DNA of 64,000 nt from Escherichia coli (GTDB lineage: Bacteria; Pseudomonadota; Gammaproteobacteria; Enterobacterales; Enterobacteriaceae). The DNA lies in the NCBI RefSeq assembly GCF_003334385.1, contig NZ_QOWN01000023.1; one strand, given 5' to 3'. This document shows, one piece after another, positions 13,418 to 20,692 of this stretch (position 1 is the stretch's first letter; the number at the start of each line of letters is the position of its first letter). The notes below the pieces were generated by a model, which worked only from the letters and a program-made list of their open reading frames with translations, searched no databases and was not told the DNA's origin. Position numbers and translations under genes: made by a program.

Positions 13418-16400
13418 ATGAAAAAGTTACGCGTAGCCGCCTGCATGCTAATGCTGGCGCTGGCAGGGTGCGACAACAACGATAACGCGCCAACAGCGGT
13501 GAAAAAAGATGCGCCTTCTGAAGTTACTAAAGCGGCCTCTTCAGAAAACGCGAGTTCAGCAAAACTCTCCGTGCCGGAGAGACAAAAACTGGCCCAACAG
13601 AGTGCCGGTAAGGTGCTGACATTGCTGGATCTCTCTGAAGTCCAACTTGATGGTGCAGCCACGCTGGTGCTGACGTTCTCCATCCCTCTCGACCCGGATC
13701 AGGATTTCTCACGCGTTATTCATGTCGTCGATAAAAAAAGCGGCAAAGTGGATGGTGCCTGGGAGCTGTCAGATAATCTTAAAGAGTTACGTTTACGCCA
13801 CCTCGAACCGAAACGTGATTTGATCGTTACTATTGGCAAGGAGGTCAAAGCACTCAACAACGCAACCTTCAGTAAAGATTACGAAAAAACTATAACTACC
13901 CGCGACATCCAACCCAGCGTCGGTTTTGCCAGCCGTGGTTCGCTGCTGCCTGGCAAAGTCGTTGAAGGGCTGCCGGTAATGGCGCTCAACGTTAATAATG
14001 TCGATGTTAACTTCTTCCGCGTTAAGCCAGAATCTCTGCCAGCATTCATTAGCCAATGGGAATACCGCAATTCGCTGGCGAACTGGCAGTCAGACAAACT
14101 GCTGCAGATGGCGGATCTGGTCTACACCGGACGGTTTGATCTCAATCCTGCGCGTAACACCCGTGAAAAATTATTGCTGCCGCTGGGCGATATCAAACCG
14201 CTTCAGCAGGCGGGCGTGTATCTGGCTGTGATGAATCAGGCTGGACGTTACGATTACAGTAATCCCGCGACGCTGTTTACGTTAAGTGATATCGGCGTTT
14301 CAGCTCACCGTTATCACAATCGTCTGGATATCTTTACCCAAAGTCTGGAAAACGGCGCGGCCCAGCAAGGAATTGAAGTCTCTTTATTAAATGAGAAAGG
14401 GCAGACTCTGACTCAGGCAACCAGTGACGCTCAGGGGCATGTGCAGCTGGAAAATGATAAAAACGCGGCATTACTGTTGGCGCGTAAAGACGGTCAGACA
14501 ACGCTACTCGATTTAAAACTTCCGGCGCTGGACTTAGCAGAATTTAACATTGCTGGCGCGCCAGGCTATAGCAAACAGTTTTTCATGTTTGGCCCACGCG
14601 ATCTTTATCGCCCAGGTGAAACGGTAATCCTCAATGGTTTGCTGCGTGATGCAGACGGTAAAGCGTTGCCCAATCAACCCATCAAGTTAGACGTGATTAA
14701 ACCCGATGGGCAGGTACTCAGGAGCGTCGTTAGTCAGCCGGAGAATGGCCTCTACCACTTTACCTGGCCACTCGATAGCAATGCGGCAACCGGTATGTGG
14801 CATATTCGCGCTAACACGGGCGATAATCAGTATCGGATGTGGGATTTCCACGTCGAAGATTTTATGCCAGAGCGCATGGCGCTGAATCTGACCGGTGAGA
14901 AAACCCCGCTAACGCCGAAAGATGAAGTGAAATTCTCCGTGGTGGGGTACTACCTGTATGGTGCACCTGCTAATGGTAATACTTTGCAAGGGCAACTTTT
15001 CCTGCGCCCACTGCGTGAAGCTGTGTCAGCCTTACCTGGTTTTGAATTCGGCGATATAGCTGCCGAAAATCTTTCCCGCACGCTGGATGAAGTTCAGTTG
15101 ACGCTGGATGATAAAGGGCGCGGCGAAGTTTCTACAGAAAGCCAGTGGAAGGAAACGCATTCCCCATTACAGGTTATTTTCCAGGGTAGTTTGCTGGAAT
15201 CGGGCGGTCGCCCGGTGACGCGCCGCGCTGAGCAGGCTATCTGGCCTGCCGATGCATTGCCGGGGATCCGTCCGCAGTTCGCCTCGAAATCGGTTTACGA
15301 TTATCGTACTGACAGCACGGTGAAACAGCCCATTGTTGATGAAGGCAGTAACGCCGCTTTTGACATCGTTTATAGCGATGCGCAAGGCGTGAAAAAAGCC
15401 GTGTCGGGCTTGCAGGTGCGCCTGATTCGCGAACGCCGCGATTACTACTGGAACTGGTCAGAAGATGAAGGCTGGCAGTCACAGTTTGATCAAAAAGATC
15501 TGATCGAAAATGAACAAACTCTGGATCTGAAAGCGGACGAAACCGGCAAGGTCAGTTTTCCGGTAGAGTGGGGCGCTTATCGTCTGGAAGTCAAAGCGCC
15601 GAATGAAGCGGTCAGTAGTGTTCGTTTCTGGGCTGGCTATAGCTGGCAGGACAACAGCGACGGTAGCGGCGCAGTGCGACCCGACCGTGTCACGCTGAAA
15701 CTGGATAAAGCCAGTTATCGCCCTGGCGACACCATTAAGTTGCATATCGCCGCGCCAACGGCGGGTAAAGGTTATGCGATGGTCGAGTCCAGTGAAGGGC
15801 CGCTGTGGTGGCAAGAGATTGATGTTCGGGCTCAAGGGCTGGATCTGACGATTCCGGTCGATAAAACCTGGAATCGTCATGATCTGTATTTAAGTACGCT
15901 GGTGGTACGTCCTGGCGATAAATCTCGCTCCGCGACGCCAAAACGCGCGGTTGGTGTGTTGCATCTGCCGCTTGGCGATGAAAACCGTCGCCTCGATCTG
16001 GCGCTGGAAACACCAGCAAAAATGCGTCCCAATCAACCATTAACCGTGAAAATTAAAGCCAGCACTAAAAATGGCGAGAAGCCTAAACAGGTGAATGTGC
16101 TGGTGTCTGCCGTTGATAGTGGTGTGCTGAATATTACTGACTACGTCACGCCAGATCCGTGGCAGGCGTTCTTTGGTCAGAAACGCTATGGCGCAGACAT
16201 TTACGATATTTACGGTCAGGTTATTGAAGGTCAGGGGCGTCTGGCAGCTCTGCGTTTCGGTGGCGATGGTGATGAGCTGAAACGTGGTGGTAAACCGCCG
16301 GTCAATCACGTCAATATTGTCGTGCAGCAGGCGCTGCCGGTAACGCTCAACGAACAGGGCGAAGGCTCGGTTACACTGCCGATTGGCGATTTTAACGGTG

Positions 16401-18379: not shown

Positions 18380-20692
18380 ATGCCTCGCTTGTTAACCAAA
18401 CGCGGCTGCTGGATAACGTTGGCAGCCGCGCCCTTTCTCCTTTTTCTTGCAGCGTGGGGAGCAGATAAACTCTGGCCTCTACCGCTGCATGAAGTCAATC
18501 CCGCACGAGTGGTCGTGGCGCAGGATGGTACGCCGCTCTGGCGCTTCGCCGATGCTGACGGCATCTGGCGTTATCCGGTAACAATCGAAGATGTTTCTCC
18601 ACGTTACCTTGAAGCGCTGATCAATTATGAAGATCGCTGGTTCTGGAAGCATCCGGGGGTGAATCCATTCTCGGTGGCGCGCGCAGCATGGCAAGATCTC
18701 ACTTCGGGACGGGTTATTTCCGGTGGCAGCACGCTCACTATGCAGGTTGCTCGTCTGCTTGATCCTCACCCCAAAACATTTGGCGGCAAAATTCGCCAGC
18801 TCTGGCGCGCGTTGCAACTGGAATGGCATCTGTCTAAGCGTGAAATTCTGACCTTGTATCTTAACCGCGCTCCGTTTGGCGGTACGTTGCAGGGGATCGG
18901 TGCGGCAAGTTGGGCTTATCTCGGAAAATCGCCTGCGAATTTAAGCTATTCCGAGGCGGCAATGCTGGCGGTTTTGCCGCAAGCGCCCAGCCGTCTTCGC
19001 CCGGATCGTTGGCCGGAGCGTGCCGAAGCCGCGCGTAATAAAGTGCTCGAACGGATGGCCGTGCAAGGTGTGTGGTCCCGTGAGCAGGTAAAAGAGTCAA
19101 GGGAAGAACCCATCTGGCTGGCCCCCCGACAAATGCCGCAACTGGCACCGCTGTTTTCGCGCATGATGCTCGGTAAAAGCAAAAGCGACAAAATCACTAC
19201 TACGTTGGATGCCGGTCTTCAACGACGTCTGGAAGAACTGGCGCAAAACTGGAAAGGGCGGTTGCCACCGCGCAGCTCACTGGCGATGATCGTGGTTGAT
19301 CATACCGATATGCGTGTTCGCGGCTGGGTGGGATCGGTTGATCTCAACGATGATTCACGCTTTGGTCATGTTGATATGGTCAATTCGATCCGATCGCCAG
19401 GATCAGTGCTCAAACCGTTTGTTTATGGTCTGGCGCTGGATGAAGGCTTGATCCACCCGGCATCACTGCTGCAAGACGTCCCCCGGCGCACCGGTGATTA
19501 TCGACCAGGTAACTTTGATAGCGGTTTTCATGGCCCGATCAGCATGAGCGAGGCGCTGGTGCGCTCGCTGAACTTACCTGCTGTGCAGGTGCTGGAAGCC
19601 TATGGACCGAAACGGTTTGCGGCAAAGTTACGCAATGTTGGATTGCCGTTATATTTGCCCAACGGTGCTGCGCCGAATCTTTCACTCATTCTCGGCGGCG
19701 CTGGTGCAAAACTGGAAGATATGGCGGCAGCGTATACCGCGTTTGCTCGCCACGGCAAGGCAGGCAAATTGCGCTTACAGCCTGACGATCCGCTGCTTGA
19801 ACGGCCTTTAATGTCGTCGGGGGCGGCGTGGATCATTCGCCGGATTATGGCTGATGAAGCGCAACCCTTGCCGGATAGTGCCTTGCCGCGCGTCGCCCCA
19901 CTGGCATGGAAAACGGGCACCAGCTATGGCTATCGTGACGCCTGGGCGATTGGGGTTAACGCTCGCTATGTCATTGGGATCTGGACTGGCAGACCGGACG
20001 GCACGCCCGTTGTTGGTCAGTTTGGCTTTGCCAGTGCCGTACCATTGTTGAATCAGGTCAATAATATCTTACTGTCGCGCAGTGCGAATCTGCCGGAAGA
20101 CCCGCGCCCGAACTCAGTCACTCGTGGCGTTATCTGCTGGCCGGGCGGACAGTCTTTGCCGGAAGGTGACGGTAACTGTCGCCGCCGCCTGGCAACCTGG
20201 CTGCTGGACGGGAGTCAGCCGCCAACTCTATTACTGCCGGAGCAGGAAGGCATTAATGGCATTCGTTTCCCCATCTGGCTGGATGAAAATGGCAAACGTG
20301 TTGCCGCTGATTGCCCGCAAGCGCGACAAGAAATGATAAATGTCTGGCCGCTACCGCTGGAACCCTGGCTGCCCGCATCAGAACGTCGCGCTGTGCGCTT
20401 ACCACCGGCCTCGACAAGTTGCCCGCCATACGGTCACGATGCCCAGCTCCCGCTGCAGCTGACAGGCGTTCGCGATGGCGCGATTATTAAACGTTTACCG
20501 GGCGCAGCGGAAGCGACTTTGCCGTTGCAATCAAGTGGAGGGGCAGGTGAACGCTGGTGGTTTCTGAATGGCGAACCGTTAACTGAACGCGGGCGCAACG
20601 TGACCCTGCATTTGACGGATAAAGGTGATTATCAATTGCTGGTGATGGATGACGTGGGGCAAATCGCGACAGTGAAATTTGTCATGCAATAG
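18380..20692 (+). CDS. pbpC: Penicillin-binding protein 1C (bifunctional glycosyltransferase/transpeptidase homologue)
   Basis: 770 aa; GT51 motif EDRWFWKHPG; SxxK (SVLK); start codon abuts the yfhM stop. Confidence 0.95.
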   Translation: MPRLLTKRGCWITLAAAPFLLFLAAWGADKLWPLPLHEVNPARVVVAQDGTPLWRFADADGIWRYPVTIEDVSPRYLEALINYEDRWFWKHPGVNPFSVARAAWQDLTSGRVISGGSTLTMQVARLLDPHPKTFGGKIRQLWRALQLEWHLSKREILTLYLNRAPFGGTLQGIGAASWAYLGKSPANLSYSEAAMLAVLPQAPSRLRPDRWPERAEAARNKVLERMAVQGVWSREQVKESREEPIWLAPRQMPQLAPLFSRMMLGKSKSDKITTTLDAGLQRRLEELAQNWKGRLPPRSSLAMIVVDHTDMRVRGWVGSVDLNDDSRFGHVDMVNSIRSPGSVLKPFVYGLALDEGLIHPASLLQDVPRRTGDYRPGNFDSGFHGPISMSEALVRSLNLPAVQVLEAYGPKRFAAKLRNVGLPLYLPNGAAPNLSLILGGAGAKLEDMAAAYTAFARHGKAGKLRLQPDDPLLERPLMSSGAAWIIRRIMADEAQPLPDSALPRVAPLAWKTGTSYGYRDAWAIGVNARYVIGIWTGRPDGTPVVGQFGFASAVPLLNQVNNILLSRSANLPEDPRPNSVTRGVICWPGGQSLPEGDGNCRRRLATWLLDGSQPPTLLLPEQEGINGIRFPIWLDENGKRVAADCPQARQEMINVWPLPLEPWLPASERRAVRLPPASTSCPPYGHDAQLPLQLTGVRDGAIIKRLPGAAEATLPLQSSGGAGERWWFLNGEPLTERGRNVTLHLTDKGDYQLLVMDDVGQIATVKFVMQ

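Follow-up and report, generated by a model that had tools for sequence, protein, structure and literature searches.

The junction between yfhM and pbpC, two adjacent genes coding for a bacterial alpha-2-macroglobulin (A2M) and for penicillin-binding protein (PBP) 1C, was analysed in a 64,000-nt stretch of Escherichia coli DNA from contig NZ_QOWN01000023.1 (the window, to which coordinates refer unless stated otherwise). An RNA hairpin was found at 18401..18430 on the + strand, just past the yfhM stop codon and inside the pbpC coding sequence, and covariation between its two arms among Enterobacteriaceae indicates that it is very probably a structure under selection at the RNA level. Considered as a whole, it is likely that yfhM and pbpC form an operon in which pbpC would be translated by reinitiation behind yfhM and in which the hairpin would lower pbpC expression while both genes are kept under common control. 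The gene pair itself and its proposed role in defence and repair are already known; the junction hairpin is a modest addition, which leaves the category of the finding unchanged.

Structure and conservation of the junction hairpin

The hairpin comprises the stem arms CGCGGCTGCTGG (18401..18412) and TTGGCAGCCGCG (18419..18430), which enclose the 6-nt loop ATAACG. Folding of the junction gave a perfect, GC-rich stem of 12 bp with a free energy of -20.8 kcal/mol, and compared with 73 windows of the yfhM coding sequence the strength of the hairpin was in the top 1%. The element lies 21 nt past the yfhM stop codon and spans codons 8-17 of pbpC; across relatives this distance is 21-22 nt. Within the first 75 nt of pbpC, all Enterobacteriaceae loci whose two genes are 0-1 nt apart had a stem of 12-13 bp in identical columns, and both the nucleotides and the encoded peptide under the stem vary among these loci. 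Divergent E. coli strains retain the hairpin along with the TAAATG sequence formed by the yfhM stop and pbpC start codons.

For the covariation test an ungapped alignment of 20 Enterobacteriaceae sequences was used, in which the helix occupies columns 22-34 and 39-51. Of all helix cells 92.7% were paired, compared with 32-56% when the 3′ partners were slid by 1-3 columns. Compensatory changes on both sides occurred in 7 of the 13 helix pairs, with five pair types at pair 25-48, and the number of double-change cells was 43 versus 15 ± 3.2 in shuffles (0 of 500 reached 43) and 4-12 after sliding. The identical 13 pairs were predicted independently by RNAalifold. Moreover, the helix contains two conserved G.U pairs, which show that the structure belongs to the sense-strand RNA. 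Part of the covariation lies at synonymous sites, where the combinations TCC/GGA, ACC/GGT and CCC/GGG couple a codon for Ser, Thr or Pro with the third position of a codon for Gly, and in the outer stem AAA/TTT alternates with CGC/GCG.

The natural hairpin was more stable than synonymous recodings in 25 of the 26 loci with a gap of at most 12 nt (median z of approximately -1.9), with z values of -4.7 and -5.8 in Cedecea, whereas wide-gap relatives had no excess of structure at the pbpC 5′ end over recodings (z of approximately -0.4). Due to the fact that the recoding null is already very stable, the pbpC peptide itself seems to be shaped by the structure. No Rfam family was matched at the junction, neither at the gathering threshold nor at E ≤ 10, and no description of the hairpin was found in the searchable literature.

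Start of pbpC and transcription of the gene pair

The stop codon of yfhM is followed directly by the start codon of pbpC (TAA/ATG at 18377..18382, + strand, in the context ...CCG TAA ATG CCT...), with a gap of 0 nt and with both open reading frames (ORFs) in a common frame; the abutment reported in the initial annotation is thus confirmed. E. albertii, Citrobacter and divergent E. coli likewise have the TAAATG junction. The ATG at 18380 is the sole start candidate common to E. coli, E. albertii and divergent E. coli, and any later pbpC start would cut into the membrane anchor of the protein. No Shine-Dalgarno (SD) sequence was found in the 25 nt preceding this ATG, for which the best duplex with the anti-SD sequence had +0.4 kcal/mol, in comparison to -6.0, -7.1 and -5.9 kcal/mol for the controls yfhM, ndk and rlmN, respectively.

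Since pbpC lacks an SD sequence and its start codon adjoins the yfhM stop codon without any intervening base, ribosomes finishing yfhM would most likely go on to translate pbpC (termination-reinitiation), and translational coupling of pbpC to yfhM appears on balance probable. Known termination-reinitiation pairs of the ATGA and TAATG type share with yfhM-pbpC the abutting stop and start codons and the lack of an SD sequence; in such pairs translation of the downstream gene depends on translation of the upstream gene, a dependence which yfhM-pbpC may share. In another predicted stem the 3′ end of yfhM (~18332-18344) is paired with the first pbpC codons (18382-18394), and the accessibility of the pbpC start region was 0.28 compared with a mean of 0.53 for 20 control genes, an effect which is modest and variable across species. 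Read-through of the stop codon to a YfhM-PbpC fusion was considered because both ORFs are in one frame, and was rejected because the PbpC anchor would have the wrong topology and TAA would be an efficient stop.

In order to compare the junction among relatives, 80 loci from Enterobacterales and Pseudomonas were collected by scanning one genome per species. In 76 loci the 3′ end of the A2M gene is included, and in 73 of these pbpC was located downstream of it on the same strand. Between the A2M stop codon and the pbpC start codon the distance was 0 nt in Escherichia and Citrobacter, 1 nt in Enterobacter, Kluyvera, Pluralibacter, Pseudocitrobacter, Phytobacter and relatives, 3-12 nt in Mangrovibacter, Pantoea, Hafnia and Cedecea, 51-59 nt in Yersinia and Photorhabdus, 78-239 nt in Xenorhabdus, Budvicia, Gilliamella and Providencia, and approximately 400-940 nt in Pseudomonas (2361 nt in one locus). 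Judged by these sequences, the abutting arrangement (0-1 nt) characterises the Enterobacteriaceae and is no general property of the A2M-PBP1C pair. The spacers of Pseudomonas are variable insertion sites with unrelated material. In Pseudomonas yangonensis (locus L040) a 686-nt spacer contains an ORF of 189 aa (14812..15381 of that locus, + strand) which, judged by eye, resembles a REP-associated tyrosine transposase (REP, repetitive extragenic palindromic; ...HLHMLMVLPP...WQRRFWEHLIRDE...HINPLKHGLV), and the spacer of another Pseudomonas locus (L046) contains a hydrophobic ORF of 115 aa on the opposite strand.

The intergenic region between yfhM and the divergent gene sseA (206 nt, 13212..13417) includes the yfhM SD region and one weak sigma-70-like site (ATTACA-17-CATAAT, 9/12, at 13345..13373). 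Promoter matches were at chance level, with 7 sites found and 6.4 expected. A crude consensus scan covering sigma-70 sites gave no + strand site from 13374 to 18380, and the nearest + strand sites lie downstream inside pbpC. yfhM and pbpC would thus be transcribed together from upstream of yfhM, as far as this can be deduced from the sequence. For the K-12 chromosome, a peak of sigma-E RNA polymerase at coordinate 2649866 was reported by genomic SELEX (systematic evolution of ligands by exponential enrichment; PMC5493296). By estimate this peak lies ~110 nt inside the yfhM 5′ end, at window position ~13530, and an envelope-stress promoter for yfhM would suit the function proposed for the gene pair. 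In the spacer between pbpC and ndk (20693..20840, + strand) a promoter-like site was found (TAGTCA-17-TATAAT, 10/12, at 20756..20784), which probably serves ndk. No terminator-like site was found on the + strand of this spacer, and the first such hairpin is located after ndk (21351..21364), so that yfhM-pbpC transcripts may read into ndk.

Proposed effect of the hairpin and alternative explanations

It is proposed that the hairpin would mark the 3′ end of the yfhM message and would act there either as a partial terminator or attenuator, or as a barrier to 3′ exonucleases protecting the yfhM mRNA. In both cases less product would be made from pbpC than from yfhM, with the same control retained; we give about equal weight to the hairpin lowering pbpC output relative to yfhM and to its having no such effect. 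Rather than co-expression at a tight stoichiometry, the arrangement suggests that the two genes are regulated together but expressed unequally, with YfhM as the more abundant product. An excess of YfhM over PbpC would make sense, since more is required of a suicide inhibitor, which acts stoichiometrically, than of an enzyme. Attenuators and stem-loops by which genes of one operon come to be expressed unequally are known, for example the partial terminator of rplL-rpoB and the REP stem-loops of malE-malF. The likeness to these elements consists in a stable stem-loop just past the upstream stop codon, followed by a gene of which less product is needed. Unlike these intercistronic elements, the hairpin of the Enterobacteriaceae is embedded in the first 17 codons of a downstream ORF without an SD sequence.

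Support for a role at the yfhM 3′ end comes from relatives in which the two genes are separated by a spacer. In Yersinia, Photorhabdus, Xenorhabdus, Budvicia, Gilliamella and Providencia a strong hairpin is present in the non-coding spacer, within ~45 nt of the A2M stop codon and upstream of the pbpC SD sequence. The position of the hairpin thus tracks the end of the A2M gene and not the start of pbpC, which favours a role at the yfhM 3′ end over a role in pbpC initiation. With a d'Aubenton-Carafa-type formula 14 of 39 Enterobacterales hairpins scored as intrinsic terminators (d of +2 to +39); of the controls, the ndk terminator of the window scored +18.6 and none of 40 random windows of the yfhM coding sequence scored above -38.7. 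One terminator-like hairpin is that of Superficieibacter (CCCGCTGGC-GCTG-GCTGGCGGG-TTTTCTG), where, as in Pluralibacter, the canonical terminator is located within pbpC, and in Mangrovibacter and Pantoea the stem is followed by 5-8 U. In E. coli, the 12-bp stem and the 6-nt loop are within the dimensions of terminator stem-loops (5-14 bp, loop of 3-8 nt), and the hairpin is followed by the pyrimidine/U-rich tract CCCTTTCTCCTTTTTCTT (18431..18448, + strand), which encodes PFLLFL of the transmembrane (TM) helix. The E. coli tail is CCCUUUCUCCUUUUU, with a tail score of 0.76 for the same hairpin in a divergent E. coli, and canonical U-tracts follow the stem in several relatives.

Several observations weigh against this reading. 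The E. coli hairpin is a non-canonical terminator with a d score below 0 (approximately -45 in divergent E. coli, -26 for the best alternative in the window), because CCC separates the stem from the U-rich run, and it was not flagged by a consensus terminator scan. Synonymous enrichment of T after the stem was weak (mean z of 0.9), and some relatives, for example Pseudocitrobacter, are without any U-tract. The hairpins of spacer-type relatives may be plain gene-end terminators and not homologues of the embedded hairpin. No yfhM or pbpC 3′ end was found in the supplement text of the Term-seq studies Adams 2021 and TERMITe 2025. Additionally, the support for coupling from the SD duplex energy among 73 loci (median of 0 kcal/mol for tight junctions of at most 3 nt, which lack an SD sequence, n = 20, versus -4.35 kcal/mol for spacers of at least 50 nt, which usually have one, n = 48) is not phylogenetically independent, since the tight junctions form one clade.

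A more specific version of the proposal, which is less likely than not, is that the hairpin acts as a translation-sensitive attenuator within the first 17 pbpC codons, by which both transcription and translation of PBP1C would be gated by translation of YfhM. According to this version, in the ancestor of the Enterobacteriaceae the start of pbpC would have been shifted upstream, past the terminator of yfhM, until it abutted the yfhM stop codon, and entry of RNA polymerase into pbpC would require that the hairpin is melted by a ribosome reinitiating at the SD-less AUG. If true, such an attenuator would fix a low ratio of PBP1C to A2M.

Among the alternatives, an action of the hairpin on pbpC translation fares best, unlikely as it is: the hairpin would either keep a ribosome that has terminated in place on the SD-less AUG or delay early elongation in favour of membrane targeting of the N-terminal signal anchor. 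This would be in line with a stem that begins at +22 of pbpC, just beyond the footprint of a ribosome on the AUG, with the coverage of the codons for the start of the TM helix, and with the co-occurrence of the hairpin and SD-less tight junctions. It is opposed by Yersinia, Photorhabdus, Budvicia and other spacer-type relatives, in which the hairpin lies upstream of the pbpC SD sequence and the pbpC 5′ coding region has no excess structure, as given above, and by a hairpin position that is constant relative to the A2M stop codon and not to the pbpC start codon.

Plain tight co-expression, in which one transcript and efficient reinitiation would give a fixed and roughly equal YfhM:PbpC ratio and the hairpin would be without effect, is somewhat less likely still. 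Tight co-expression had been claimed in the initial annotation, and the missing SD sequence, the 0-nt gap, the common frame and the lack of a promoter-like site within yfhM agree with it, as does the non-canonical terminator character of the E. coli hairpin. However, reinitiation without an SD sequence is usually inefficient, the covariation shows that selection keeps the hairpin, and outside Enterobacteriaceae the genes are 50-900 nt apart, with a hairpin past the A2M stop codon in most loci. Due to the restriction of the abutting junction to Enterobacteriaceae and the conserved, covarying hairpin, the claim of tight co-expression is supported only in part.

It is improbable that pbpC is expressed mainly from a promoter of its own in the 3′ part of yfhM, which would make the genes adjacent but independently regulated. 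In Pseudomonas, where 400-900 nt with unrelated insertions lie between the genes, independent expression does exist in the family, and a terminator-like hairpin after yfhM would fit separate units; the crude sigma-70 scan gave no candidate on the + strand of yfhM, however, and because the hairpin is inside pbpC, every pbpC transcript must read through it, whatever its promoter. Least probable is that the encoded peptide (e.g. R-W-x-W-L-A-G at the membrane boundary) gives rise to the inverted repeat as a side effect, without selection on the RNA: the synonymous null reaches a high stability of its own (-16 to -25 kcal/mol), which means that the amino acids account for a good part of the pairing, and hardly any variation is seen in the inner stem columns 27-34 and 39-46. 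However, the helix is retained in E. coli and E. albertii although the peptide encoded there is another one (KRGCWITLAAAP), the stem of Cedecea has 18 bp and an unrelated sequence, the synonymous third base of Gly tracks the first base of the opposing Ser, Thr or Pro codon in the outer stem, and the linkage of Lys/Phe versus Arg/Ala (AAA/TTT, CGC/GCG) is without an obvious reason at the protein level.

The two proteins, their locus and their proposed joint role

The identities of both genes and the mechanisms of their products, YfhM as a protease trap and PbpC as a class A PBP, are virtually certain. yfhM (13418..18379, + strand, ATG start) encodes a type I bacterial A2M of 1653 aa, which is also named ECAM. 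No NCBIfam family was obtained for YfhM at E ≤ 0.001, and its identification therefore rests on the Protein Data Bank (PDB), Pfam and RefSeq. The 1653-codon ORF is not a chance ORF, since it is 100% identical to the annotated yfhM of E. coli chromosomes; the allele in the window is WP_000736312.1. YfhM matched the PDB chains 4RTD, 4ZIQ and 5A42, which are YfhM itself, and 4U48, the Salmonella orthologue. The match to 4RTD spans residues 23-1653 with only two substitutions within the part of the alignment shown: Ser219 (14072..14074) and Gln606 (15233..15235) of the window are replaced by Pro and Arg, respectively, in the 4RTD crystallisation construct, which are probably strain or cloning differences. 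The Pfam domains follow in the order bMG1, bMG2, bMG3, MG2, bMG5, bMG6, A2M_BRD, A2M, TED_complement, CUB_A2MG and bMG10. Among 1.84 billion representative proteins 12,125 relatives of YfhM were found, and the CxEQ motif is present in 149 of the best 150.

The lipoprotein signal peptide of YfhM (13418..13474, + strand; N-terminus MKKLRVAACMLMLALAGC-D) contains the lipobox LAGC at aa 15-18 (13460..13471) with the acylated Cys18, followed by Asp19 at position +2 (13472..13474), in line with the initial annotation, which described a 1653-aa lipoprotein with a LAGC lipobox. An Asp at +2 retains a lipoprotein in the inner membrane according to the Lol-avoidance rule. Lipobox and Asp(+2) are kept in 73 of the 79 related loci whose A2M N-terminus is inside the fetched DNA. 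YfhM has four cysteines, at positions 9, 18, 1187 and 1491. The thioester motif CLEQ (Cys1187-Gln1190, in YPYGCLEQ of the TED domain, aa 1176-1281) is intact and is the sole CxEQ of the protein, as had been described, and its coordinates on the + strand are 16976..16987, which corrects the earlier 16975..16986 by one base. In an alignment of 46 diverse homologues C1187, E1189, Q1190, D1596, R1597 and M1634 are invariant. The near-universal CxEQ of the loci used for the junction survey is not independent evidence, because YPYGCLEQ was one of the patterns by which these loci were searched.

The bait region corresponds to Arg923-Leu942 (16184..16243, + strand; residue numbering matched to PMC4498604), and it is disordered in the structure of elastase-cleaved ECAM (Fyfe 2015, PMC4498604). 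In the C-terminal MG domain the motifs RDDR (18197..18208) and ESMY (18311..18322) were located (18197..18322, + strand); motifs of this type (RDDR, ExMY) shield the thioester and bind the cleaved bait (PMC4498604). The landmark residues of that study, namely Arg923-Leu942, Arg956, Cys1187, Gln1190, Met1634, RDDR and ExMY, fall as expected. Cleavage of the bait frees a disordered segment, by which the C-terminal MG domain is displaced from the TED and the Cys1187-Gln1190 thioester is exposed (Fyfe 2015, PMC4498604). Thioester formation and covalent linkage to protease are reported for ECAM in Fyfe 2015 (PMC4498604) and, as cited, in Doan and Gettins 2008 and Neves 2012. As follows from its identity to proteins of known structure and function, the YfhM of the window is exported, lipidated at Cys18 and held in the inner membrane by Asp(+2); a protease cutting the bait (~aa 923-942) releases the C-terminal MG domain from the thioester domain, and the exposed thioester would bond covalently to the protease, which would thus be trapped.

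In domain order, lipobox, bait region, CLEQ and RDDR/ExMY motifs the protein is the same as ECAM of K-12 and Sa-A2M of Salmonella enterica, and from K-12 YfhM it differs in nothing of substance. Type I bacterial A2Ms are characterised by CxEQ, a lipobox and a gene beside pbpC, whereas type II proteins (MagD, YfaS) lack CxEQ and lipobox and have their genes within an operon of six genes (PMC3735191, PMC5764988). According to the literature the MG-domain scaffold and the bait region are common to YfhM and to the type II proteins MagD of P. aeruginosa (mag operon) and YfaS of E. coli, which in contrast to YfhM of the window have neither the CxEQ thioester nor the lipobox Cys nor adjacency to pbpC.

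pbpC (18380..20692, + strand, ATG start) encodes a class A PBP of 770 aa. An N-terminal hydrophobic TM anchor (aa 10-28, 18407..18463, + strand) is followed by a GT51 domain (18560..19057, + strand; Pfam Transgly, E = 4.9e-52; E84 at 18629..18631), a transpeptidase domain (19295..19936, + strand; Pfam Transpeptidase, E = 7.7e-12) and a BiPBP_C domain (PF06832, aa 687-767, 20438..20680, + strand). The GT51 motifs are EDRWFWKHPG at aa 84 and GGSTLTMQ at aa 115, in agreement with the consensus EDxxFxxHxG and GxSTxTxQ, and the transpeptidase motifs are SVLK 342 (S342 at 19403..19405), SLN 396 and KTG 511. The NCBIfam equivalogs NF008414 (1568.6 bits, cut-off 1121) and TIGR02073 (919.9 bits, cut-off 494.2) were matched over the full length without any difference from E. 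coli PBP1C. The assignment of pbpC to the peptidoglycan glycosyltransferase PBP1C thus holds, and the protein is a class A PBP that is anchored in the membrane and whose motifs for glycosyltransferase and transpeptidase are intact. A PDB search gave no solved structure of PBP1C itself, and the nearest entry was PBP1a (4OON, E = 1.4e-54). The first phenotype of PBP1C was described only in 2018, when overproduced PBP1C was found to support LdtD-dependent labelling (PMC6131605).

The two genes make up the yfhM-pbpC operon of the E. coli chromosome, a core operon of the species. The stretch 13000..21000 of the window is 100% identical to several E. coli chromosomes, where RefSeq labels it sseA, yfhM ("alpha2-macroglobulin"), pbpC and ndk, and among 5426 complete E. 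coli genomes it was found in all 5426, in each case on the chromosome. GC content and GC content at third codon positions (GC3) of the locus are ordinary for the window; recent horizontal transfer into E. coli is ruled out by these typical values and by the presence of the locus in all 5426 genomes. The strain NCTC9100 (locus L084, NZ_LR134239.1), one of 2 of the 5426 genomes in which the match covered less than 80% of the 8-kb query, carries a clean deletion of pbpC and ndk (11380..11557 of that locus): the match stops 19 nt into pbpC, and the intact yfhM is followed by rlmN. This deletion and its rarity (2/5426) show that pbpC is dispensable yet nearly always kept.

Elsewhere in the window, the trmJ-iscR intergenic region (3093..3346) contains three tandem copies of a 91-bp unit resembling REP sequences or bacterial interspersed mosaic elements, each matching Rfam naRNA4 with 72 bits. 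The array has one 91-bp unit more than the near-identical strain TUM23337, so the copy number differs among strains. Between sseB and sseA the Rfam families ryfA (11547..11850, - strand, 314.9 bits) and IS128 RNA (11982..12190, - strand, 260.3 bits) were matched, and RefSeq places the small toxin gene timP at the equivalent of 11579..11704, inside the ryfA match. The iscRS stability element between iscR and iscS (4063..4172, 138 bits) and the small RNA sroE between ispG and hisS (25019..25110, 117 bits) are expected for this region of E. coli.

With regard to joint function, the defence and repair idea, in which A2M blocks proteases entering the damaged periplasm and PBP1C mends the peptidoglycan, comes, like the pairing itself, from Budd 2004 and is repeated in Neves 2012, Fyfe 2015 and other papers. 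The description of the pair as known but under-explored is apt, with structures solved and the idea of Budd 2004 still unproven. None of the PADLOC defence models matched YfhM or PbpC, and nothing therefore ties the pair to catalogued anti-phage systems. The way in which the pair is joined changed along the Enterobacterales, some lineages having the hairpin in the spacer and others within the pbpC ORF. If confirmed, the embedded hairpin would be a compact example of a selected RNA structure inside the coding sequence for a membrane anchor, and it would give a handle for separating the levels of YfhM and PBP1C when their joint function is tested.

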